Shown: in pieces, positions 46,528 through 56,752 of the stretch
Layout: each line of letters opens with the position of its first letter
How positions within the stretch are numbered: position 1 is the stretch's first letter
Assembly (NCBI GenBank): GCA_040882355.1
Contig: JBBEBM010000042.1
Location: 17,309-81,308 of the forward strand
Reading direction: 5' to 3'
From: Dehalococcoidia bacterium
GTDB lineage: Bacteria > Chloroflexota > Dehalococcoidia > DSTF01 > RBG-16-68-14
Length of the DNA: 64,000 bases
Position numbers and translations under genes: made by a program
Notes under the pieces: generated by a model
Database searches by the model: none
What the model saw: only the letters and a program-made list of their open reading frames with translations
Told to the model about the DNA's origin: nothing

Positions 46528-48843
46528 CTAGGCCGCCGCCTGCAACGGCTCGGCTTCGTCGACTAAGAGCTCCCTGAAGACCCGCGCGATGTCGGGGTCG
46601 AACTGGGTGCCGGCTCCCTCCTCTAGTTCTCGCAACACGTGTTCCAGCGTGAGCGCCTTGCGATAGGGGCGATCCAGGACCATGGCGGAATAGGCATCGG
46701 CGATGGCGATGATCCTCCCTAAGACGGGGATCTGCTTGCCCTTGAGGCCACGCGGATAGCCCTTGCCGTCGTAGCGCTCGTGGTGGCAGGAGACGGCCTG
46801 GAGGACGTCTTTGAGTTGCGGTACCTCCCTGATCAGCACCTCGCCGATGACGACGTGACGCTTGATGGCTTCGTATTCATCGGGATCCAACGCAGCTGGC
46901 TTCTTCAGCACTTCATCGGGCACGGCCAGCTTGCCGACGTCGTGGAGGAGGCCGGCGATGCGCAGCGCGCGTTGCGCCTGCTGCGACAGGCCCAAGCGGG
47001 CCGCGAGCTTCATGCCATACTCGGCGACGACGTCGCTATGGTCCTTCGTATAGCGGTCTTTCACATCGATCGCCTGGACGAGGCTGTCCAGCACGCCAAA
47101 GGCTGTATCGCCGCGGCGAGCGTCGGTGATCTGGCTGGCGCCGGGGCGACGGTTCACGCGTTCACGCTTTGCGTGATACATGGCGGCGTCGGCGGCAGCG
47201 ATGAGCTTCTCCAACGTTGTGGCGTCGCGCGGCAGGGACGCGACACCGACCGCGACGCTGACCGGGATTCTGTCGCCCGATTCGGTCCGAAACTCGCTCG
47301 CTCCAAGGAACGTCGCGATGCGCCGGGCCACGGTAAGGGCGGCCCGGTGGCCGCGGCCGGGCAGGACAAGGAGAAACTCATCACCTCCGTAGCGGCTGGC
47401 CAGGTCGCGCGTTTCACAGCTCTCCCGCAAGATACCGCCCACCAGCCGCAGGATATCGTCGCCGGCCGCATGGCCGTACGTGTCGTTGAACAGCTTGAAG
47501 CCGTCGATGTCAGTGAGCACGAGCGAGAGCGGCCGCTTCCGCCCGCGCGCCTCTTCAATAGCCTGCGCCAGGTGGATGTGAGCGCCGCGATGGTTGGCAA
47601 GACCGGTGAGCGGGTCCGTGACGGCTTGCTGATGCTCGACCTCGACGGCGCGCTCCAGCCGTTGCGCATACTCCCGTAGCTGCGTTTGCGAGTCCGCGAT
47701 CTCGCTGTGGGCGTCGGTGAGGTGCTCGTTCAGGCGCTGCAGCTCGGCGGCGTGCGAGCGTAGCTCAAGCTCGGCCTGGCGCCGCTCGGTGATGTCGCGA
47801 AAGCTCCAGACCCGGCCCGGCAGGCCCTCACCCGCCACCAGCGGACGGGACAGCAGCTCGAAGACGCGGCCATCCTTGAAGAAGATCGTGTCGGTAGCCG
47901 TGTCGGTGCTCTGATAGAGCTCGCGGACGGTCGTGGTAAAGCCGTGGGGGTCGTGAAGCTGATCGAGCGTGTGCTTCAGGATTTCGGCGCCGTCGCGTTC
48001 GGCCAGGAGGGCTTCGGGCACGCGCCACATCTCGGCCAGGCGCGAGTTCGCGTAGGACACGCGGCCGGTGTTGGTGACCACCAGAATGCCGTCCTCAGTA
48101 GAGTCGATGGTCGCGCGCAGCGTCGCCTCGCGCTCCCTGAGCGCCTCCTGCGCGCGCTGATGCTCTATCGCAATGCCTGCCAGGTGAGTCGACCGTTCGA
48201 CTCGCCGCATGTCGTGATCCGTAGCGGCGCGCGGCCCGGGCCAGTAGACAGCGAAAGCGCCCAGGACGTCGCCGGCGGCGGAGAAGATGGGCGTGGCGCA
48301 GCACCCGAGCGGGCCGAAGCGGTCGGTCAAGGCGGCCATCGTTTCGCCTAACGGATCGGTGGAGAGGTCGGCGACGACGACCGGCTGCTTGAGGTAGGCG
48401 GCGGCGGCGCAGGGCGACGCGTTCGGACCAATGGGCAGACCGTCGATCGCGTCCTTGTACGCTGGCGGCAGGTTCGGCGCCGCACCAAAACGGAGCTGAT
48501 CTCCTTCCAGGAGCGCGACTGCGCCGAGCGCGTCCGGCGCCTCCTCTTGAACGGCCCTGCAGAGCGCGTCAAGGATGCCTGCGAGGGGAGCGCCGTTGGC
48601 GATCATCTCGAGGATGCGTTTTTCGGTCGCGAGGCGCTCGTAGAGCTGCTTCATCTCCCCCGACGAGATCGTCAGCGCCCGTTCAAGCGTGTAGCGGTCT
48701 TGGTCCGCCTCCCGATAGCTGCGTTGGACGTGCTCCAGGAACGACCGCCAGAGGTCAGTGGTAACGGGGGCGCATTGGTGCCGGAGTCCCAGCCTCCGCA
48801 ACTGGAGCTCGAGCAGCGGATGGAGGTCGTTTTCAGCGTTCAC
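46528..48843 (-). CDS. GAF-PAS-GGDEF-HD-GYP signalling protein (c-di-GMP turnover)
   Basis: It has an RYGGDEF motif and HD-GYP signatures (LLHDVGK...HHERYDGKGYPRGL). Confidence 0.85.
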   Translation of the reverse strand: MNAENDLHPLLELQLRRLGLRHQCAPVTTDLWRSFLEHVQRSYREADQDRYTLERALTISSGEMKQLYERLATEKRILEMIANGAPLAGILDALCRAVQEEAPDALGAVALLEGDQLRFGAAPNLPPAYKDAIDGLPIGPNASPCAAAAYLKQPVVVADLSTDPLGETMAALTDRFGPLGCCATPIFSAAGDVLGAFAVYWPGPRAATDHDMRRVERSTHLAGIAIEHQRAQEALREREATLRATIDSTEDGILVVTNTGRVSYANSRLAEMWRVPEALLAERDGAEILKHTLDQLHDPHGFTTTVRELYQSTDTATDTIFFKDGRVFELLSRPLVAGEGLPGRVWSFRDITERRQAELELRSHAAELQRLNEHLTDAHSEIADSQTQLREYAQRLERAVEVEHQQAVTDPLTGLANHRGAHIHLAQAIEEARGRKRPLSLVLTDIDGFKLFNDTYGHAAGDDILRLVGGILRESCETRDLASRYGGDEFLLVLPGRGHRAALTVARRIATFLGASEFRTESGDRIPVSVAVGVASLPRDATTLEKLIAAADAAMYHAKRERVNRRPGASQITDARRGDTAFGVLDSLVQAIDVKDRYTKDHSDVVAEYGMKLAARLGLSQQAQRALRIAGLLHDVGKLAVPDEVLKKPAALDPDEYEAIKRHVVIGEVLIREVPQLKDVLQAVSCHHERYDGKGYPRGLKGKQIPVLGRIIAIADAYSAMVLDRPYRKALTLEHVLRELEEGAGTQFDPDIARVFRELLVDEAEPLQAAA

Positions 48844-50092
48844 GAATCGTGGTCAACGTCATCGTCTGATTGTGGAGATCGCACCTTCCGTTGGTCAACG
48901 GTGAGATCTCACCGTAGGAGTAGAAGCCGATCTGCTGTGTGCCCTCAGGCAAGACCTCCAGCGTGGCTTCCGTCTCCTCCTCCGTGCGCTCGCCCAGAAC
49001 GAGCCTGCGGCCGACGCAGCTAATCGCTACAGCCAGTGTGGGTTGACCGTCCTTGCAGGCGTCGCGAGTGGCGAGCGCAGCGCCCGACGCGCCATCGACC
49101 AGCCGGTCGAAGTTCGCCCTCATGAGCTGGGCCTGCCATCCCTCAGGGATGTCCCCGGCGAAGGTCATGGACTGCTTGTCCTCGTCTACAGCGAGGATCG
49201 TCCGAACGACGCTGTCGTCGCCGGTCGAGTCTGAGCGCAGCGCGAGAGGAAACAGGAGGGCTGTGGCGGGTAGGCCGGAGGCGCGCTCGCCCAGATACTC
49301 CTTGTAGAGCTCAAGCGCCGGCCTGCCGTCAAGCTCATAGAGGACGTTGTGATCGGAGCGGGTGACGAGCCGTTCCGGGCCAAAGATGTCCCAACCCCCC
49401 TTCGAGCCGTGGCCGACGACCACCCGCTCGCCGTAGAGCCCTGCGGCGGAGACCAGCCCGCTTGCGGGCCGCCCACGTTCGAGCACCCACGTTCGCGCGA
49501 ACCGGTCCGCGTCGCCTGCCAGACCTCCGGTGACGACGACGGCCCGCGGCAGGACGCTGTTGATCCCGCGGACGAGCTCGCTGCCGTTGACGCTGAGACC
49601 GTCGGAGAGCACGAGGACCGCTCGCAGATCAGGACGCGCGAGCTCTTTGGCCAATGTGCGGCCGGCCTCATACGATTCGTCAGCCGATTGGACTGGGGCG
49701 GCCGTGCTGGCGACGGAGCTGTACTCGAACTGAAGGACGCCGACCGCCATGCTACCGTCGGAGATCTTAGCGTCGAAGATCTCGCCCGAGCTGGAGCAGC
49801 CGATGACGTGAGACGAGGGATACGCTTGCACAAGCGCCTCGATGGGTTCCGGGGTATCGACGAATTCGGGCGCGCTGAAGACGATCACGAGCGTCCGATC
49901 GGAATCGAGATCGGGGAACGGCTGCACTGACCAGCCCGTCCGTATCGTGTAGGAAAAGGTTTCGAGCTTCACGGCAGCACCTCCGTCAGGTCGTATCGAA
50001 GCGGAAGAGCGTCTTCCCCACCGATGCAGCAGCGAGACGGACGTCTCCTGCCCGATCATCGACGCGAATGAAGGCGCCGTCGAGTCGGTCAA
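48833..50092 (-). CDS. FIST-domain sensor protein
   Basis: FIST N/C-like organisation. Its stop overlaps the start of the GGDEF gene. Confidence 0.65.
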   Translation of the reverse strand: MTDSTAPSFASMIGQETSVSLLHRWGRRSSASIRPDGGAAVKLETFSYTIRTGWSVQPFPDLDSDRTLVIVFSAPEFVDTPEPIEALVQAYPSSHVIGCSSSGEIFDAKISDGSMAVGVLQFEYSSVASTAAPVQSADESYEAGRTLAKELARPDLRAVLVLSDGLSVNGSELVRGINSVLPRAVVVTGGLAGDADRFARTWVLERGRPASGLVSAAGLYGERVVVGHGSKGGWDIFGPERLVTRSDHNVLYELDGRPALELYKEYLGERASGLPATALLFPLALRSDSTGDDSVVRTILAVDEDKQSMTFAGDIPEGWQAQLMRANFDRLVDGASGAALATRDACKDGQPTLAVAISCVGRRLVLGERTEEETEATLEVLPEGTQQIGFYSYGEISPLTNGRCDLHNQTMTLTTIRER

Positions 50093-50163
50093 GGGGCTGA
50101 TCCTCCGGAGGACAGAGGCACCGCGGGCCCTACAGGCTGAGGAATGCCAACGGACGGGTTAGG

Positions 50164-50856
50164 TCAAGTGATGTATGGAAGGTCAACGCCGTTGGCGCCC
50201 AGGTAGGCCAGGGTCAGCCCGCGTATGTTCTTGCCGACTAACACGGCGAGCATGAAGCGCCAGAAGTTCATCCGCACGGCGCCCGCTGTGATGCCTGCCA
50301 GCTCGAAGAACGGGTTCGGGATGGCGGAGAGGACGAGCAGGGTCACGAAGCCGTAGTTGTCCATCAGCCAGTCGACCCAGCCGATGATGCGCTCGACTAT
50401 CGGGCGGACGAGGCGAGGCGCCTGCACCTGGCCCTCCCGCGCGACCTCCGAGCCGACAGCGCCCGCCCCGTAAGCGGTGATCTCGCCAAGCGCCATGCCC
50501 GTTCCGCCCAGGACGCCCACAATGAAGGGGTTGAGCGTAGCGCCCTGGCTGAGGATCAGGGCCTGGCCGGCGGCGGTGAGGCCGGGCACGGGGATGAAGA
50601 CGGTCGCAGTGCTGGCCAGGTTCGCCAGGAAGACGCCGGGATAGCCGATCGCGGCGAACGCCCCTTCGTCGAGGTCGACCCAGATGGGCAGCAGCAGGAG
50701 CCCAATTGACGGAACGAGGACGAGGGCGCCGACCGCCAGCGCGAGGAGGATCTTGCCGTTCCGGCCCTTGGGCAGGTGGTCGAGGACCCATTGATGGAAG
50801 ACAGCGGCCAGCGGCAGATTGTCAGGCCGGCCGGCGGATTCGGCCTCGCGTTCCAT
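50164..50856 (-). CDS. DedA/TVP38 (SNARE-associated) family membrane protein
   Basis: It shows the conserved DedA hydrophobic pattern with G-rich re-entrant loops. Confidence 0.65.
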   Translation of the reverse strand: MEREAESAGRPDNLPLAAVFHQWVLDHLPKGRNGKILLALAVGALVLVPSIGLLLLPIWVDLDEGAFAAIGYPGVFLANLASTATVFIPVPGLTAAGQALILSQGATLNPFIVGVLGGTGMALGEITAYGAGAVGSEVAREGQVQAPRLVRPIVERIIGWVDWLMDNYGFVTLLVLSAIPNPFFELAGITAGAVRMNFWRFMLAVLVGKNIRGLTLAYLGANGVDLPYIT

Positions 50857-51000
50857 GGGGACAGCTTAACGCACGCCCTACCGCCGCGCCCCACCCCGAG
50901 GTCGTGGGTCGCGGGGCGCGCACGACCGCCTTGCGTGAGTCTGGCGGCGCCTTCTATAGTGCGAAGGCACGCCGCTTCTAGCGATCTTTACCAAGGTGTC

Positions 51001-52029
51001 ATGTACCTACTTCAGAAGCTGAACCGCTACGTCATCCCCCGCACGGAGCTGACCTACCCGTGCCATCAGCTCAAGATGCACCAGAACGCCGCGGCCGCGC
51101 CCGTCGACCACGTCATGCCGGACTTCGAGGACGCCTGCCCGTACGAGTTCAAGGGTGAACAGAGCCGCCAGACGATGGTCGAGGCGCTGAACAGCGTCGA
51201 CTTCGGGCACAAGGTGATCGCGATCCGGCCGAACAACATCCAGTCGAAGTTCTTCCTGGGCGACATCGAGGCGATCATGCTGGGCGCCCCCGACAAGTTC
51301 CACGGCATCATCCTGCCCAAGACGAACGAGCCGGACGACATCGTCTACCTGTCGAAGCTGCTCGAGGCCTACGAGCGCGACGGCGGCTGGACCACGACCG
51401 TGCAGATCGAGGCGCTGATCGAGACGCCGCTGGGCGTGCTCAACGCCTTCAAGATCGCGAGCGCATCGGAGCGGATGGCCGGCCTCATCTTCGGCATCGC
51501 GGACTTCGCGGCGGCGCTGGGCGTGCGCGAGAACGTCGAGAACCAGAACCAGAGCTTCCACTACGCGAAGCAGGCCACGGTCGTCGCGGCGAAGGCCGCC
51601 GGCCTCCACGCCGTCGATAACGCCTACCTGCGGCTGGTGCGCAAAGACACGCCGCCCGAGGAAGAGCAGGAGATCCTGGCCGGCCTGCGCGAGAAGAACG
51701 TCGGCTCGGCGAACCTGGGCATGGACGGCACGTGGGTGATCCACCCGCAGCAGGCGGAGATCGCGAACGAATGCTTCACGCCAACCGAGGAGCAGATCGC
51801 AGAGGCGAAGCACGCCGTTGAGTTCTACCACAAGGCGGGCGGCGGCTCCGTCTACGAGCCGGAGTACGGCAAGTTCCACGACGAGGCGACGATCAAGGCC
51901 TGCCTGATGGACCTGGCGAAGGCCGTGCAGGCGGGCAAGCTGGACGCCTCGTGGTTGACGACGCAGGCGGCGAAGTCGAAGGAAGTGACGGGCTACGACA
52001 TCCTGGAAGTGATGCGCAGGGTCGCCTAA
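51001..52029 (+). CDS. HpcH/HpaI-CitE family lyase (citryl/malyl-CoA lyase-like)
   Basis: The product is CitE/Mcl-like (MYLLQKLNRYVIPRTELTYPCHQ...FEDACPYE...IETPLGVLNAFKIA). The ORF track start at 50776 lies upstream of the conserved N-terminus. Confidence 0.8.
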   Translation: MYLLQKLNRYVIPRTELTYPCHQLKMHQNAAAAPVDHVMPDFEDACPYEFKGEQSRQTMVEALNSVDFGHKVIAIRPNNIQSKFFLGDIEAIMLGAPDKFHGIILPKTNEPDDIVYLSKLLEAYERDGGWTTTVQIEALIETPLGVLNAFKIASASERMAGLIFGIADFAAALGVRENVENQNQSFHYAKQATVVAAKAAGLHAVDNAYLRLVRKDTPPEEEQEILAGLREKNVGSANLGMDGTWVIHPQQAEIANECFTPTEEQIAEAKHAVEFYHKAGGGSVYEPEYGKFHDEATIKACLMDLAKAVQAGKLDASWLTTQAAKSKEVTGYDILEVMRRVA

Positions 52030-52295
52030 ACAGAGAGGCGGACGAGGTGTCGAATACCAGGAAGAAGAGGCCAACGGAACGAAGCCACATCCCAAGCGAC
52101 ATGGCCCAGATTCGGGTGGCGCTAGCGGACACGCTGATAGAGGTCAATTCGACAAGATTGCGACGTCTCTTGGCACCAAAGGGGAAGTTGGTGGATAGAG
52201 AAGCGTTGTTCCATTCGCTTCCGCGGATGGACCCGCCCTTGTCATCTACGATATCAGAGGAACGCAGAGAGCGAATCTGAGTCAGCCTCGTCTTC

Positions 52296-52964
52296 ATGGC
52301 CAATTCGATTCTGGGCAACGATGATATCCGCTCTCACTTCGAAGAGCCCAGAGAAGGCGCCTTGCCCTCCAACACACATCCATGTCAGGCACCTGACGAT
52401 TTCTGCTGGGTTCACAGTTACGCGCTGAGATCGCGCGCGCGGAACCCTCTACTGATCGGGAAGTGGCTGATTCGCGTTACGTGTCAGCATGTGGAGTACT
52501 GCTGGGGTCAAGTGCGGGATGCCACTGAGAACGGATCTCTGGGCTTTGCTGCCAAGGTCTCTACCGACTGGGGAAATCGTAACGATCCAGCCCAGACATG
52601 GCGGCCGAACGATCATATGATCTGCGCCTTCACGCGTGACTGGTCGGACTATGAAGACGTTCGTCGAGTCGCTGGGCGTCTCGCAGAGATCGATGCTGTT
52701 CGAACACAGACTCTACAGTATAAGCTGGACATCGGAACCAGAATGGGAATCTACTCAGGCAATCATCCAGGGCTTGTTGCCCTCTACACAAGCGCTCCAC
52801 CCTATCCGGAGGTCCGTCTCCGCGAAGGACCCCTGGACGAGTTGCGAGCTTTGTTTGAACGTTCCGACGCGACACCCGACCTTACCGGGATATCAGCGAG
52901 TGCGGCGGACATCGAGGAGGCTCGCGAACGGATTACACATGCGGTTCTACGAGTTCGAAGCTAA
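52296..52964 (+). CDS. hypothetical protein in a visibly lower-GC segment
   Basis: 222 aa with no confident family assignment. Its codon usage differs from neighbouring genes. Confidence 0.4.
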   Translation: MANSILGNDDIRSHFEEPREGALPSNTHPCQAPDDFCWVHSYALRSRARNPLLIGKWLIRVTCQHVEYCWGQVRDATENGSLGFAAKVSTDWGNRNDPAQTWRPNDHMICAFTRDWSDYEDVRRVAGRLAEIDAVRTQTLQYKLDIGTRMGIYSGNHPGLVALYTSAPPYPEVRLREGPLDELRALFERSDATPDLTGISASAADIEEARERITHAVLRVRS

Positions 52965-54141
52965 GCGCCTCCTGGCCAAACAGGGCATCGCCACGCCGAA
53001 GGGTGGGCTGGCGAAGACGCCCGCCGAAGCGGAGCGCATCGCCGGCGACGTCAGCGGGCCGGTGGTGCTGAAGTCGCAGGTGCTCTCCGGCGGCCGGATG
53101 AAGGCGGGAGGCGTGAAGTTCGCCGACACGCCCGCGGAGGCGAAGGCCGCCGCGGCCGACATCCTCGCGCTCGAGATCAGCGGGCAGCTCCCCGTCGGTG
53201 TGCTCGTCGAGGCGAAGGCGCCGGTGCGCCAGGAGTTCTTCCTGGGCGTGACCTACGACGCGCTCGCCAAGCAGCCGGTGGCGATCTTCAGTGACATGGG
53301 CGGCATCGACATCGAAGAGGTCGCCGAGCAGCACCCTGACCACGTCGCCAAGGCGCACTTCTCGTCGCTGCTGCCGTTCAGCGACTACCGGATGAAGGAG
53401 CTGGTCTCGTCGCTCGGCATCGGCGGCGGACAGCTCACGGCGCTGACGGGGTTTGGCGCGCGGCTGGCCCGCGCGTTCCTCGATCGCCACCTGACCCTCG
53501 CCGAGATCAACCCGCTCGCCCAGCTTGAGGACGGCTCGTTCGTCGCTCTCGACTGCCACGCGGACATGGAGGAAGAGGCGCGCGACCGCCACGGCGAGCT
53601 GCTCGCCGAGTTCGGCATCGACGCGGACGAGACGCGCCAGGGGCGCCCGCCGACCGACTTTGAGCGGCGCGGCGCGCAGGTCGACGCGGTCGACCACCGC
53701 GGCGTCGCGGGGCGCGTCGTCGAGTTCGAGGGCGACCTGGGCTGCGTGATCGGCGCCGGCGGCGGCAGCCTCACAATCTTCGATGCGATCCGCCGCCACG
53801 GCGGCCACCCGGCGAACTACTGCGAGATCGGCGGCAATCCGAGCGTGCGCAAGGCGTGCGAGCTGACGAAGCTGATCGTGAGCCAGCCGGGCGTGAAGAA
53901 GATCGCCGTGATCATGAACGTGGTGAGCAACACCCGCGTCGACATCGTCGCGCGCGGAGTGGTGAAGGGCGTTGTCGAGTCGGGCTTCGACCCGGCGGAG
54001 AAGATCGCGATCTTCCGCATCCCGGGCGCGTGGGAGGGCGAGGGGTTCAAGATCCTCCAGAAGTACGGCGTGGAATACTGCGACCGCACGGTCTCGATGT
54101 CGGAGGCGGCGCGGCGCGCCGTCGAGAAGCTTCGGGCATGA
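52939..54141 (+). CDS. sucC: succinate--CoA (or malate--CoA) ligase beta subunit, ATP-grasp
   Basis: MRFYEFEAKRLLAKQGIATPKG...VLKSQVLSGGR... matches the SucC/MtkA family. Confidence 0.85.
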   Translation: MRFYEFEAKRLLAKQGIATPKGGLAKTPAEAERIAGDVSGPVVLKSQVLSGGRMKAGGVKFADTPAEAKAAAADILALEISGQLPVGVLVEAKAPVRQEFFLGVTYDALAKQPVAIFSDMGGIDIEEVAEQHPDHVAKAHFSSLLPFSDYRMKELVSSLGIGGGQLTALTGFGARLARAFLDRHLTLAEINPLAQLEDGSFVALDCHADMEEEARDRHGELLAEFGIDADETRQGRPPTDFERRGAQVDAVDHRGVAGRVVEFEGDLGCVIGAGGGSLTIFDAIRRHGGHPANYCEIGGNPSVRKACELTKLIVSQPGVKKIAVIMNVVSNTRVDIVARGVVKGVVESGFDPAEKIAIFRIPGAWEGEGFKILQKYGVEYCDRTVSMSEAARRAVEKLRA

Positions 54142-54323
54142 CTGTCATGCTGAACGAAGTGAAGCATCTGGCCCTCGAGTTCGACGGCCCGTCCATCGTG
54201 AGGGGCCAGACCCTTCGCTTCGCTCAGGGTGACAATGGGGCCTACGGCGTCGAATACTGCGACCGCACGGTCTCGATGTCAGAGGCGGCGCGGCGTGCCG
54301 TCGAGAAGCTGGCCAAGGACTGA
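54139..54323 (+). CDS. small ORF (61 aa) whose last 24 codons duplicate the sucC 3' end
   Basis: Its ATG overlaps the sucC TGA. Nt 54241-54323 are ~90% identical to 54060-54141 (..YGVEYCDRTVSMSEAARRAVEKL..). Confidence 0.3.
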
Positions 54324-54341
54324 TGAGGAAGGAGCCCGGCC

Positions 54342-54548
54342 ATGTGGTGGGAGGACGCGCTGTGGGGATTCTGGAACGGGCTTTCGGCGTGGATCGTGTT
54401 GGTCGCGCACGCGTTCGGCGCGTGGGAGCACTTCCCGTTCTACAACGCCGAACGCGGCGGGAACTGGTACGACTTCGGGTTCTTAATCGGGGCCGGATCT
54501 CCAGTCTTGGGGATATTCGGCGGCTCCCAAGCTCGGAAGGCCGGCTAG
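54342..54548 (+). CDS. small hydrophobic protein (68 aa)
   Basis: An AGGAAGGAG RBS precedes the ATG. The product is MWWEDALWGFWNGLSAWIVLVAHAFGAWEHFPFYNAERGGNWYDFGFLIGAGSPVLGIFGGSQARKAG. Confidence 0.4.
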   Translation: MWWEDALWGFWNGLSAWIVLVAHAFGAWEHFPFYNAERGGNWYDFGFLIGAGSPVLGIFGGSQARKAG

Positions 54549-54552
54549 TGCG

Positions 54553-55449
54553 ATGTCCATCCTTGTAGACGAGAACACGACGTTCATCATCCAGGGGATC
54601 ACGGGCCGGGAGGCGGTGAACATGACCCGCGAGAGCCTCGACTACGGCTCGAAGATCGTGGGTGGGGTGACGCCGGGGCGGGGCGGGCGCGACGTCTACG
54701 GCGTGCCCGTCTACGACACGGTGCGCGAGATCACGTCGCGGCAGCGCGTCGACGGCTCGGTGCTGACGGTGCCGCCCGCGTTCGTGCGCGACGCCGCCTT
54801 CGAGGCGATCGAGTGCGGGATCAAGCTGCTCGTCATCGTGACGGAGCGCATCCCGCGGCTGGAGGTCGCGCAGATCGTGGAGCTGGCGACCATGCGAGGC
54901 GCGCGGCTGATCGGGCCGAACTGCCTGGGAATCATCTCGCCGGGCAAGGCGAAGATGGGCGGCATCGGCGGGCCGGCCAAGGACACGGGCAAGGCATATC
55001 AGCCGGGGCCCGTCGGGGTGATGTCGCGCAGCGGCGGCATGACAACGGAGATCGCGAACGCACTGACGGCGGCCGGCCTCGGCGAGAGCACCGCCGTGAG
55101 TATCGGCGGCGACGCGATCATCGGCTCGACCTACGCGGAGCTGATGCCGCTGTTCGAGGCGGACGCTGAGACGAAGGCGATCGTGATCTACTCGGAGCCG
55201 GGCGGGCCGATGGAGGCGCAGCTCGCCGACTACGTGACGCAGAACAAGTCGCGGCTGCCGATCGTCGCGTTCATGGCGGGCAAGTTCATGGACGCGATGC
55301 CCGGCATGCGCTTCGGCCACGCGGGCACGATCGTGGAGGGCCGGCAGGACACGGCGGCGGAGAAGATCCGACGCCTGAACGAGGCAGGCATCGCCGTCGC
55401 GGAGGAGATCGAGCAGATCCCGGCGCTGGTGGAGGCGCGACTAGGATGA
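54553..55449 (+). CDS. sucD: succinate--CoA (or malate--CoA) ligase alpha subunit
   Basis: It has a CoA-binding Rossmann domain and the phosphohistidine region (..MRFGHAGTIV..). Confidence 0.88.
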   Translation: MSILVDENTTFIIQGITGREAVNMTRESLDYGSKIVGGVTPGRGGRDVYGVPVYDTVREITSRQRVDGSVLTVPPAFVRDAAFEAIECGIKLLVIVTERIPRLEVAQIVELATMRGARLIGPNCLGIISPGKAKMGGIGGPAKDTGKAYQPGPVGVMSRSGGMTTEIANALTAAGLGESTAVSIGGDAIIGSTYAELMPLFEADAETKAIVIYSEPGGPMEAQLADYVTQNKSRLPIVAFMAGKFMDAMPGMRFGHAGTIVEGRQDTAAEKIRRLNEAGIAVAEEIEQIPALVEARLG

Positions 55450-55455
55450 TTTGGC

Positions 55456-55527
55456 CACAGATATCCACAGATGGACACAGACTGCCCCGAGCGACCCTTC
55501 GTCCGATTCCATCTGTGCAAATCTGTG
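55456..55527. promoter_or_regulatory. five TCTGTG/CACAGA hexamers at 10-bp phasing: three on the minus strand (55456, 55466, 55476), two on the plus strand (55512, 55522)
   Basis: Seen in sequence. The same phased triplet occurs at 10604-10629. Confidence 0.4.
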
Positions 55528-55554
55528 GCAGTCCCGGTGCTTGGAGGCGTGCTG

Positions 55555-55776
55555 ATGCCGATGTTCGTACACGTTGAGATCGACGATGACGTGGCTGGGG
55601 ACTCCGAGCTGGCTAAGAAGCTCGTCGAGGTTTGCCCGGTGAACATCTTCGAGCTCGGAACGGACGGACGGGCGCGCATCGTGGAGGAGAACGAGGATGA
55701 GTGTGTGCTCTGCGATCTCTGCATTCAGGCGGCACCCGAGAGTGAGGTGCGCGTGATCAAGCTCTACGAGTCGTAG
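55555..55776 (+). CDS. small ferredoxin-like Cys-rich protein (partial 4Fe-4S-type motifs)
   Basis: A GGAGG RBS lies 6 nt before the ATG. The product contains VEVCPVNIF...ECVLCDLCIQAAP. The ORF track starts at 55471, inside the repeat array. Confidence 0.4.
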   Translation: MPMFVHVEIDDDVAGDSELAKKLVEVCPVNIFELGTDGRARIVEENEDECVLCDLCIQAAPESEVRVIKLYES

Positions 55777-55819
55777 GCGAGGCCGTAACCCCCTTCGAAT
55801 TGCCTACACTGGGTTCCGC

Positions 55820-56752
55820 ATGGATGCGCCAACACTCCCCATCCTCAAAGACGCTGACGTAGCCTCGCTCGTCTCGATGAGCGAGGCCATCGACGTGATC
55901 GAGACGGCGCTGGCGCGCAAGGGCCGCGGCCAGTTCGTCACGCCGCCCCGCCACTACGTGCCGAACAAGAACGGCGCGCTGGTCTTCACGATCGGCGGCG
56001 ACGCCGACGAGGGCGCGATCGGCTTTCGCGTCTACGGCGCGTTCGCCGGCGGCGTCCGCGATAGCCAGGTGGTCGCCGTCTTCGACGCGAAGACAGGCGC
56101 GCTCAAGGGCCTGGTGCTCGGCGAGGTGGTTGGGTCGATGCGCACCGGCGCGATCGGCGGCGTCGCGATGAAGCACGGCGCCAGGCCCGATGCGAGGGTG
56201 GTCGGGGTGATCGGCTCCGGCGAGCAGGCGAGGACGCAGGTCGAGGCGGCAGCGGCCGTTCGCGATCTCGCTGAGGTGCGCGTCTACAGCCGGACACCGG
56301 CGCATCGCGAGGCGTTCGCAGCGAAGATGAGCGAGCGGCTCGGCCTGCCGGTCTTCGCCGTCCCTTCGGCAGAGGAGGCAGTACGGAGCGCGGACATCGT
56401 CGTGACGGCAACGAACAGCGGGACGCCGCTCTTCGACGCGGCGCTGCTGTCGCCGGGCGCGCACGTGAACGCGCTCGGCCCGACGTTCGCGCAGCGGCAC
56501 GAGCTGGACGCGGCGGTCGCTGAGCGGGCGGCGTCGATCTTCACGGACTCGCCGGAGCAGCTCCGCGCCTACCCGGAGCCGTCGTTCCTCGAAGGCACGC
56601 CGCACATAGCGCGCGTCAGCGACCTGGCAGGCCACGTGGCCGGCGGCGCGCCGATTCGGTCATCGGGCGAGGACATCACGCTGTTCCTGTCGGTGGGCCT
56701 GTCGGGCACGGAGGTCGTGCTGGCGGACCTGGCGCTATCGAAGGTGAAATGA
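55820..56752 (+). CDS. ornithine cyclodeaminase/mu-crystallin family protein
   Basis: It has a Rossmann GVIGSGEQA motif and family-typical N-terminal features. Confidence 0.85.
   Translation: MDAPTLPILKDADVASLVSMSEAIDVIETALARKGRGQFVTPPRHYVPNKNGALVFTIGGDADEGAIGFRVYGAFAGGVRDSQVVAVFDAKTGALKGLVLGEVVGSMRTGAIGGVAMKHGARPDARVVGVIGSGEQARTQVEAAAAVRDLAEVRVYSRTPAHREAFAAKMSERLGLPVFAVPSAEEAVRSADIVVTATNSGTPLFDAALLSPGAHVNALGPTFAQRHELDAAVAERAASIFTDSPEQLRAYPEPSFLEGTPHIARVSDLAGHVAGGAPIRSSGEDITLFLSVGLSGTEVVLADLALSKVK

Follow-up and report, generated by a model that had tools for sequence, protein, structure and literature searches.

We examined a 64-kb stretch of a single metagenome-assembled genome (MAG) of a Dehalococcoidia bacterium (contig JBBEBM010000042.1; the whole 64-kb stretch is the window) and focus on a segment that encodes, on the + strand, a malyl-CoA-lyase-like protein, the two subunits of a SucCD-like acid-CoA ligase, and a small ferredoxin-like protein. 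In the explanation that we consider best overall, and that we judge to be probable, these genes constitute a four-gene ligase/lyase operon, the junctions of this operon have been colonized by other DNA, and a second copy of the end of the gene encoding the ligase beta subunit was produced by recombination at a palindromic repeat. The four core genes are intact and full length: the HpcH/CitE-fold acyl-CoA lyase (342 amino acids (aa); 51001–52029), the SucC-like ATP-grasp beta subunit (400 aa; 52939–54141), the SucD-like CoA-binding alpha subunit (298 aa; 54553–55449), and the ferredoxin-like protein (73 aa; 55555–55776).

According to this explanation, the genes encoding the lyase, beta, alpha, and the ferredoxin-like protein would be one conserved and once compact operon; the ligase subunits would interconvert a malate-type acid and its CoA ester, and the lyase would cleave the ester to, or form it from, acetyl-CoA and glyoxylate or pyruvate. 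The gap between the lyase and beta genes would have received a horizontally acquired cassette of low GC content that contains an antitoxin-like open reading frame (ORF) and the gene encoding a BLES03-fold protein. A palindromic repeat would have arrived directly after the beta stop codon, with a redundant copy of the last 23 beta codons beyond it; an unrelated gene encoding a small membrane protein would come next, and a second palindrome would precede the ferredoxin-like gene.

For comparison, relatives were drawn from public scans, from which the best 600 candidate stretches were taken; the labels L001, L002, and so forth, as well as P0003 and P0137, designate related loci or public entries in this comparison set. 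A preliminary description of the segment, made from the DNA letters, had reported the lyase, the two ligase subunits, a low-GC interruption, a duplicated beta gene end, and two small ORFs; each of these features is present, displaced by 1 nucleotide (nt) at most. That description missed a 92-nt palindrome, a 59-aa ORF (52101–52280), the ferredoxin-like gene, and a second palindrome after sucD.

A ligase clade linked to malyl-CoA-lyase-like genes

The domains of the ligase subunits are those of the succinyl-CoA synthetase superfamily (Pfam ATP-grasp_2 in beta; CoA_binding and Ligase_CoA in alpha), and the motif 'RFGHAGT' in the translation of alpha is the GHAG (phospho)histidine loop. Their best hidden Markov models (HMMs) are SucC and SucD, with both scores below the cut-offs: beta scores 240 bits on the NCBIfam SucC model (cut-off 370) and 180 bits on the MtkA model NF010647 (cut-off 604), and alpha scores 291 bits on the NCBIfam SucD model (cut-off 336). 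Members of the same clade from other phyla likewise fall below the curated cut-offs (e.g., MtkA-model scores of 185 bits in Solirubrobacterales and 163 bits in Binatia). Compared with solved structures in the PDB, beta is about equally distant from the beta subunit of succinyl-CoA synthetase (SCS; 3ufx_B, 174 bits) and the large subunit of citryl-CoA synthetase (CCS; 6hxq_B, 162 bits); alpha scores 248 bits with SCS-alpha and 196 bits with the CCS small subunit.

We constructed a neighbor-joining tree for beta (200 bootstraps) with six members of the window family from four phyla; the references were sucC from E. coli, Tsukamurella, and Natrinema, mtkA from Paracoccus aminovorans and Ruegeria conchae, and two Azospirillaceae paralogs (CcsA was not among them). 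The window family is monophyletic and is split from all of the references at 100% bootstrap, whereas the MtkAs from Paracoccus and Ruegeria nest with E. coli SucC (100%); the window beta subunit shares 29–32% identity with both SucC and serine-cycle MtkA. The family is, therefore, located outside MtkA and also outside SucC. Because the scores are below the cut-offs and the family forms a separate clade, the ligase is neither MtkAB nor canonical SucCD; on sequence, it is an ADP-forming acid-CoA ligase from an uncharacterized deep clade of the succinyl-CoA synthetase superfamily. More than 550 relatives of beta, 62–95% identical, are found among the matches listed, and these are from Chloroflexota, Binatia, Actinomycetota (mainly Solirubrobacterales), and Myxococcota. 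An exact look-up of the window's own SucC and SucD products returned no record, and a search of the gene-cluster literature on Chloroflexi, Binatota, and Dehalococcoidia found nothing specific.

The lyase matches Pfam HpcH_HpaI (96 bits), in agreement with the HpcH/CitE type that had been claimed for it, and scores below every NCBIfam cut-off (77 bits on haloarchaeal Mcl, cut-off 500; 126 on CitE, cut-off 443; and 104 on RipC, cut-off 375). Among solved structures, malyl-CoA lyases (4l9y and 5ugr) give it the highest scores, at about 115 bits, and CLYBL and CitE follow. Residues 16–300 align with 4l9y, including the C-terminal lid; the motifs IEALIET and GIADFAA correspond to FEVIIES and GAADFAA in Mcl, with the metal-binding E/D retained; and the full-length protein shares 31% identity with the Mcl from the serine-cycle cluster of Paracoccus. 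The trifunctional malyl-CoA/beta-methylmalyl-CoA/citramalyl-CoA lyase from Chloroflexus aurantiacus (4l7z) also shares the fold and the C-terminal lid region with the window lyase; however, the score with 4l7z is 86 bits, and the window lyase belongs to a subtype that is restricted to Chloroflexota (70–85% identical relatives, among the matches listed). In other phyla, the lyase that is encoded beside the ligase is of a different type, that is, a close homolog of the Chloroflexus Mcl 4l7z (478 bits).

In 130 loci with enough upstream DNA to be counted, an Mcl-like lyase of either type is encoded directly upstream of the ligase in 50 and within the fetched flank (~6 kb) in 33 more (a total of 83/130). 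Two non-orthologous Mcl-like lyases are, therefore, attached to a single ligase clade, which argues for functional coupling. Because the clade stays linked to genes of the malyl-CoA-lyase type, a malate-type substrate is predicted; malate (or beta-methylmalate/citramalate) is the most likely acid to be interconverted with its CoA ester. The system probably acts in the manner of a thiokinase and a lyase, in either direction and with malate or a close analogue as the substrate, without being MtkAB. Chloroflexus makes malyl-CoA with a CoA transferase, SmtAB, instead of a ligase.

The fourth gene is part of the same conserved arrangement. The order beta-alpha-ferredoxin-like is retained in 141 related loci, in which beta and alpha are separated by a median of −1 nt (stop to start); because of this median, we regard the compact beta/alpha arrangement as ancestral. 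In nearly all related loci with enough downstream DNA, from four phyla, the ferredoxin-like gene directly follows sucD. The encoded protein gives weak Fer4 matches and has one CP...CxxCxxC set of cysteines in roughly 70 aa. The long ORF as called from 55471 begins inside the second palindrome (55454–55529; 29-nt arms, 18-nt loop), and tblastn matches to this ORF begin at its residues 25–31, placing the real start at the ATG at 55555. The window contains this second palindrome once, and 26 nt of it are matched in L107.

Two points weigh against the predicted function. The substrate is derived only from the gene neighborhood and the ~30% identity of the lyase to Mcl, with no enzyme in the clade characterized; and the ferredoxin-like partner is unexplained, with no counterpart in known thiokinase/lyase systems. 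We know of no thiokinase or succinyl-CoA synthetase operon with a ferredoxin-like partner.

Could the pair be an ordinary succinyl-CoA synthetase of the tricarboxylic acid (TCA) cycle or the citryl-CoA synthetase of the reductive TCA cycle? The ATP-grasp beta subunit, the CoA-binding alpha subunit with its GHAG loop, and the best HMM and PDB matches are all shared with SucCD; SCS-beta and the CCS large subunit are the two best solved relatives of beta, and some members of the family have been named 'succinyl-CoA/citryl-CoA synthetase' by the Joint Genome Institute. However, both subunits are below the equivalog cut-offs, as they also are in members from other phyla; the family is a separate clade in the tree (albeit one without CcsA as a reference); and no TCA genes are located near the window operon. 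What is conserved beside the ligase is a gene for an Mcl-like HpcH-fold lyase, whereas citryl-CoA synthetase (Hydrogenobacter CCS/CCL, ACLY) has a citrate-synthase-like citryl-CoA lyase (CCL) as its partner. We consider this alternative improbable, and the earlier statement that the operon does not encode a TCA succinyl-CoA synthetase agrees with the sub-cut-off scores, the separate clade, and the adjacent Mcl-like lyase.

The preliminary description had gone further and proposed malate–CoA ligase plus malyl-CoA lyase in a setting of the serine-cycle or glyoxylate-assimilation type. The lyase half of this proposal stands, that is, the lyase is nearest to malyl-CoA lyases; the ligase half does not, by both score and tree. 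The likeness to MtkAB/Mcl (e.g., the plasmid cluster of Paracoccus aminovorans, L179) is a two-subunit ligase of the SucCD superfamily encoded beside an HpcH-fold, malyl-CoA-lyase-like gene, the same adjacency that mtkAB and mcl have in methylotrophs, and a predicted chemistry in which an acid, ATP, and CoA give an acyl-CoA that is converted to acetyl-CoA and an oxo-acid. True orthology with serine-cycle MtkAB and malyl-CoA lyase, for C1 or glyoxylate assimilation, would account for this adjacency and for the affinity of the lyase to Mcl; nevertheless, we regard it as very improbable. The window beta subunit is about 31% identical to MtkA, does not reach the cut-off of the MtkA model, and lies outside the clade in which MtkA groups with proteobacterial SucC; the lyase is of a separate subtype; and mtk clusters do not include the conserved ferredoxin-like gene. 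The serine-cycle setting is contradicted by the neighborhood: unlike L179 and L181, no sga, hpr, ppc, or glycerate-kinase genes surround the window operon, and genes for serine-glyoxylate aminotransferase, hydroxypyruvate reductase, and phosphoenolpyruvate carboxylase, present in L179 and L181, are found at none of the window, L001, L004, and L169.

As a separate observation, two Azospirillaceae plasmids (L177 and L178) encode another unassigned SucCD-like pair that is 35–38% identical to the window beta subunit. A tripartite tricarboxylate transporter is encoded upstream of the pair, which has a gene for an aldehyde dehydrogenase on one side and one for a molybdopterin oxidoreductase on the other; its annotation varies between sucC and 'ATP-grasp domain protein'.

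The palindromic repeat and the second copy of the beta tail

The SucC-like gene starts at the ATG at 52939 and ends with the stop codon at 54139–54141. Its functional last codons, contiguous with the body of the gene, include a 68-nt segment (A1, 54064–54131) that is repeated directly at 54243–54310 (A2; 23 beta codons), with 65 of the 68 nt identical (96%); chance can be ruled out as the source of this repeat. The '~85%' first estimated for this duplicate was roughly right: the identity is about 89% when the divergent last codons are included. From A1, the DNA continues with an 11-nt spacer that contains the stop codon, a palindrome, an 8-nt spacer, A2, the codons for AKD and a stop, TGATGA, a ribosome-binding site, a small ORF, and sucD; the 111 nt between the tail copies are, therefore, the palindrome and the two spacers. 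The palindrome (54143–54234; 92 nt, with 32-nt arms and a 28-nt loop) begins 1 nt after the sucC stop, and its predicted RNA fold has an energy of −65.4 kcal/mol (z = −6.0). An ORF of 61 aa (54138–54323) extends across the palindrome and A2; it had been described as starting at 54139, but its ATG is at 54138 and overlaps the sucC stop as ATGA.

The relatives separate the duplication from the small ORF. In L001–L003, three independent assemblies in which beta is 90% identical to that in the window, the same tail-palindrome-tail architecture is present, again with the palindrome right after the stop, and the left boundary of the second tail is within about 3 nt of that in the window; the number of units is one in L002 but two in L001 and L003, with the same encoded protein. 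In L169 (beta 95% identical), a single tail is followed 36 nt later by the small ORF, with no duplication; the continuation of A2 in the window (TGATGA, ribosome-binding site, small ORF) matches this native arrangement. L086 has only the tail, the small ORF, and alpha; in the P0003 locus beta and alpha abut; and L087 contains a decayed, related copy of the palindrome at the same site, without a second tail. Because L169 and L086, on the one hand, and L001–L003, on the other, show the small ORF and the duplication each without the other, the duplication is tied to the palindrome instead of the small ORF. We can, therefore, give almost no credence to the idea, put forward in the preliminary description, that the duplicated tail is a target-site-type scar from insertion of a cassette carrying the small membrane ORF. 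The position of this ORF, 18 nt past A2, would fit such a scar; but the ORF directly follows a single tail in L169 and L086, the duplication occurs without it in L001–L003, and the two copies bracket the palindrome instead of the ORF.

The palindrome occurs elsewhere. In L170, a copy with 32-nt arms that are 100% identical to those in the window, but with a different loop, is located 10 nt past the stop of a glycine-dehydrogenase-like gene. The intergenic region at 180–1160 in L175 is a five-unit tandem array of nested palindromic elements with periods of 153 and 177 nt, one element of which is related to the window palindrome; this array has been called as a 318-aa 'protein', P0137. Because of the identical-arm copy at the unrelated L170 locus and the L175 array, we assign the palindrome, judging from these alignments, to a dispersed and previously undescribed repeat family. 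It is single-copy within the window, a search of Rfam with positions 50000–56500 (E up to 1) gave no match, and a search of the literature for its motif gave irrelevant matches only. Like repetitive extragenic palindromic sequences and miniature inverted-repeat transposable elements, the window palindrome is short, non-coding, self-complementary, dispersed, and array-prone, has conserved arms and variable loops, and is located directly after stop codons. Unlike them, it has neither a match in Rfam or the literature nor an identified target-site duplication or partner transposase (no convincing short target-site duplication is present in the flanks in the window, L002, and L170), and the two copies of a 68-nt coding segment stand on either side of it. 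At its right end, a −35-like GTGACA is followed 18 nt downstream, within A2, by a weak −10-like AATACT (54229–54258); this pair is not conserved in L002 and is probably due to chance.

How the second tail was formed can be outlined as follows. The duplication would arise by recombination at the palindrome, with the likeliest routes being an illegitimate or homology-facilitated join or a Campbell-type integration, via the conserved tail, of a segment containing the palindrome plus a tail. Once formed, it would be an unstable direct repeat that can expand by unequal crossing-over (two units in L001 and L003) and can disappear when the copies recombine with each other (L169, where it is absent); A2 would be kept from decaying by gene conversion, with the functional copy as the donor. 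Several other origins were considered and rejected. A diversity-generating retroelement does not fit: no reverse transcriptase is encoded nearby, and the differences between the copies (G/C, G/A, C/T) are not adenine-specific. A long target-site duplication made by the palindrome itself is contradicted by the identical-arm copy in L170, which has no such duplication. A single-step tandem duplication of the tail plus the palindrome would leave two palindromes; a junction of this type is seen in L004. Recent recombination from a palindrome-bearing donor was rejected because the window is nearest to L169 throughout the lyase, sucC, and sucD (92–95% nucleotide identity), with no mosaic in sliding-window identity.

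Other partial duplications of gene ends at the beta/alpha junction, in L004 and L091, are found only where foreign DNA is present. In L004 (8498–8648), copies of the 5′ end of sucD (124 nt) and the 3′ end of sucC (45 nt) are fused at a GC-rich microhomology, which is the junction expected of a tandem duplication across the interval between beta and alpha; the insert in L004 is 2.6 kb long, and its two halves encode proline/threonine-rich, membrane-anchored proteins that share a 71-nt repeat. In L091 (1681–1707), a 27-nt fragment from the interior of sucD (encoding IYSEPGGPM; 26/27 identical to window positions 55186–55212) is located between the sucC stop and a palindromic element.

The pattern of change in A2 requires explanation. 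All of the differences between A2 and the functional tails are at third codon positions: A1 and A2 in the window differ by four synonymous and no nonsynonymous changes, A1 and A2 in L002 by four synonymous changes and the boundary codon, and the A2s in the window and L002 by five synonymous changes and the boundary codon. Over the same divergence, that is, between the window and L002, the palindrome loop and the spacers are barely alignable. For the undecayed A2 we favor gene conversion from A1; the alternatives are recent independent origins or selection on the ORF. Gene conversion is assumed and not demonstrated, because the numbers of differences within and between genomes overlap.

Several observations count against this history. 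The first creation of the tail-palindrome-tail arrangement cannot be reconstructed, and the palindrome in L170, with no long duplication beside it, indicates that insertion alone does not make one. If A2 were neutral, ~14 changes at first and second codon positions would be expected between lineages that are about 13% diverged, and one is seen. The copies within a genome are not clearly more alike than those from different genomes (4–5 vs 4–7 differences); with about eight variable sites, and 4–7 differences in all comparisons, the tail copies offer too few to sort orthologs from paralogs. The closest listed relative, L169, does not have the structure, so that loss or parallel gains are needed: a loss of the unit in L169 when the copies recombined with each other, or more than one origin of the structure. 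Finally, with the relatives limited to the best 600 candidate stretches, close relatives are under-sampled.

The absence of decay in A2 is also what would be expected if the ORF at 54138–54323 were a maintained, translationally coupled mini-gene, serving as a ribosome bridge through the hairpin or as a peptide mimic of the beta C-terminus. Its ATG overlap with the sucC stop is suited to coupling, an equivalent ORF in L002 (about 13% diverged), which begins 4 nt past the stop, is likewise open and in frame, and the second tail shows only synonymous change. Against this, the middle unit in L001 and L003 is frameshifted, L169 does without the ORF, the palindrome-encoded peptide has four matches among 1.84 billion representatives, and gene conversion is a simpler account of the pattern; a mini-gene is, in our judgment, quite unlikely.

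Slightly less likely still is that the tail copies are attL/attR-like repeats of a larger element that integrated at the 3′ end of sucC and was later almost completely deleted. This would explain why the first copies end alike in the window and L002 (RA-stop) and the second copies differently (AKD and RTETRK), why the left boundary of the second copy is equal within about 3 nt in both lineages, and why A2 is contiguous with native downstream DNA and both copies look like functional alleles. However, no integrase or other element gene is found between or beside the copies in any locus (L001–L003 included), only 111 nt separate the copies, the native tail also ends in 'RA' or 'RSA' in relatives that have no insert, and the intervening repeat occurs elsewhere without such duplications.

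The possibility that the tail-palindrome-tail structure is an artefact of metagenome assembly, created from strain variants, was considered because the source is a MAG and the copies differ at synonymous sites only, as strain alleles would; in addition, L002 and L001/L003 encode the same protein with different numbers of units. This, too, seems very improbable, because the assembler would need reads that contain the junction of the palindrome with A2, the same architecture was obtained in three independent assemblies of a relative, and the window is colinear with, and uniformly nearest to, L169 on both sides.

Cargo at the lyase/beta junction and the small membrane protein

Of the two ORFs that interrupt the operon, the first belongs to foreign DNA and the second is a conserved gene. 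The first interruption is a low-GC cassette, as previously described: the 909 nt at 52030–52938 have a GC content of 0.565, compared with 0.63–0.72, or about 0.68, in the flanking genes, and have no nucleotide similarity to the same gap in any relative compared. An independent assembly, L168, is 100% identical to the window over 51707–53837. The junction is empty in some relatives and variously filled in others. The lyase abuts sucC, with 6–72 nt between them, in L086, L100, L109, L156, and L103. A RidA-like gene occupies the junction in L169 (95%) and the P0003 locus (92%), the two nearest of the relatives compared, and in L087; a small ORF plus a gene for a PIN-domain toxin (VapBC-like) in L001–L003, L007, L096, L099, and L101; a GNAT gene in L004; and DUF4160/DUF2442 and GIY-YIG genes in L012. 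In L169, the RidA-like gene is flanked on both sides (2000–2090 and 2550–2640) by a ~40-nt motif, TGTCAACGRATAGG...GGAT.A.CGGATGGC, with a short hairpin after each; these motifs may represent a further repeat family that flanks inserted genes.

The cassette in the window contains two ORFs on the + strand. The first (59 aa; 52101–52280) has no Pfam match; it shares 31–41% identity, and a C-terminal PPLSxTIxEERxxR motif, with the antitoxin-like ORFs that precede the PIN toxins in L001, L007, L096, L099, and L101. The second (222 aa; 52296–52964) overlaps the start of sucC by 26 nt and matches Pfam PF08939 (BLES03/DUF1917) at 71.3 bits (cut-off 23.1). Its product retains all 32 residues that are invariant in 15 homologs, and its AlphaFold2 model (mean confidence, pLDDT, 80.7) has human BLES03 (C11orf68; 1ztp, E = 1e-7) as the top Foldseek match, followed by eIF4E/4EHP. 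The likeness to human BLES03 is, therefore, in both the Pfam match above threshold and the top structural match; the differences are that the window protein is about 21% identical, is bacterial, and has homologs in mobile or accessory contexts. The BLES03-like homologs are encoded in accessory islands with relaxase, excisionase-like, transposase, MerR/HMA, and Phd/YefM genes, and they have low GC content there also. The 222-aa ORF encodes a real protein and is foreign to the operon and not conserved at the junction.

Because the 59-aa ORF is homologous to antitoxin-like ORFs at the same junction, the two ORFs might be a new type II toxin-antitoxin pair in which a BLES03-fold protein replaces the PIN toxin. 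The two ORFs lie 15 nt apart in one orientation, none of the family-invariant residues is missing from the BLES03-like protein, and BLES03 has been predicted in silico to be phosphothreonine-lyase-like (PMC4159009). However, the product of the downstream gene has the BLES03/eIF4E fold and is not a PIN nuclease as in VapBC, a pairing that is not seen elsewhere; in L165 and L166, the BLES03-like genes have no antitoxin-like partner beside them; the 50 best fold matches of the 222-aa protein include no phosphothreonine lyase; and a PADLOC scan of the four small or unknown window proteins gave no matches. An orphan antitoxin remnant beside a newly inserted gene fits equally well, and we regard a new toxin-antitoxin pair as unlikely. 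The simplest reading is that a horizontally moving accessory gene landed beside a resident toxin-antitoxin cassette or replaced its toxin.

The other intervening ORF, which encodes the 68-aa hydrophobic protein between A2 and sucD (54342–54548), is located as first described and is a conserved gene, an outcome that the preliminary description had itself named as one that would refute its reading. Copies that are 83% (L169) and 82% (L086) identical directly follow sucC, the codon differences are 19 synonymous and 10 nonsynonymous, and at least 115 homologs (60–83% identity) include a stand-alone Arthrobacter gene in an unrelated neighborhood. It belongs to no Pfam family. We conclude that it is a genuine gene, a lineage-specific passenger of the operon outside the conserved system.

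Upstream of the operon, a gene encoding a VTT/DedA-like membrane protein (50164–50856) adjoins the lyase gene and is conserved there in L169 and the P0003 locus; farther upstream, two large ORFs on the − strand occupy 46528–50092, one of 771 aa with the look of a GAF/PAS-GGDEF-HD-GYP signaling protein and one of 419 aa.

Meaning for annotation and carbon flow

The inserts in this operon are mostly ordinary selfish or repetitive DNA; yet, with their relatives, they provide a natural series of empty, filled, and expanded sites in which palindromic repeats and small cassettes colonize compact operon junctions without breaking the operon. If the ORF across the palindrome were a maintained mini-gene, it would keep alpha expressed past a −65 kcal/mol hairpin or mimic the beta C-terminus, and palindrome insertions in operons could be 'domesticated' by duplicating the end of the preceding gene. 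The tail copy is a small evolutionary puzzle. The comparison also brings to notice a palindrome family with no earlier description and an accessory gene of the BLES03 fold; the conserved ferredoxin-like partner is unusual for an operon of the SucCD/Mtk superfamily.

The ligase/lyase operon is a lead for both enzymology and annotation. Members of the ligase clade are common among Chloroflexota, Actinomycetota (Solirubrobacterales), Binatia, and Myxococcota of soil and the subsurface, and the database labels of the clade are loose (succinyl-CoA or citryl-CoA synthetase, or 'acetate-CoA ligase family'); mis-annotation of these members as ccsAB could yield false calls of the reductive TCA cycle. 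The linkage to Mcl-type and ferredoxin-like genes points to an unstudied route that interconverts C4/C5 hydroxy-acids with acetyl-CoA and glyoxylate or pyruvate; such a route, if true, would alter the reconstructions of carbon flow for these groups.

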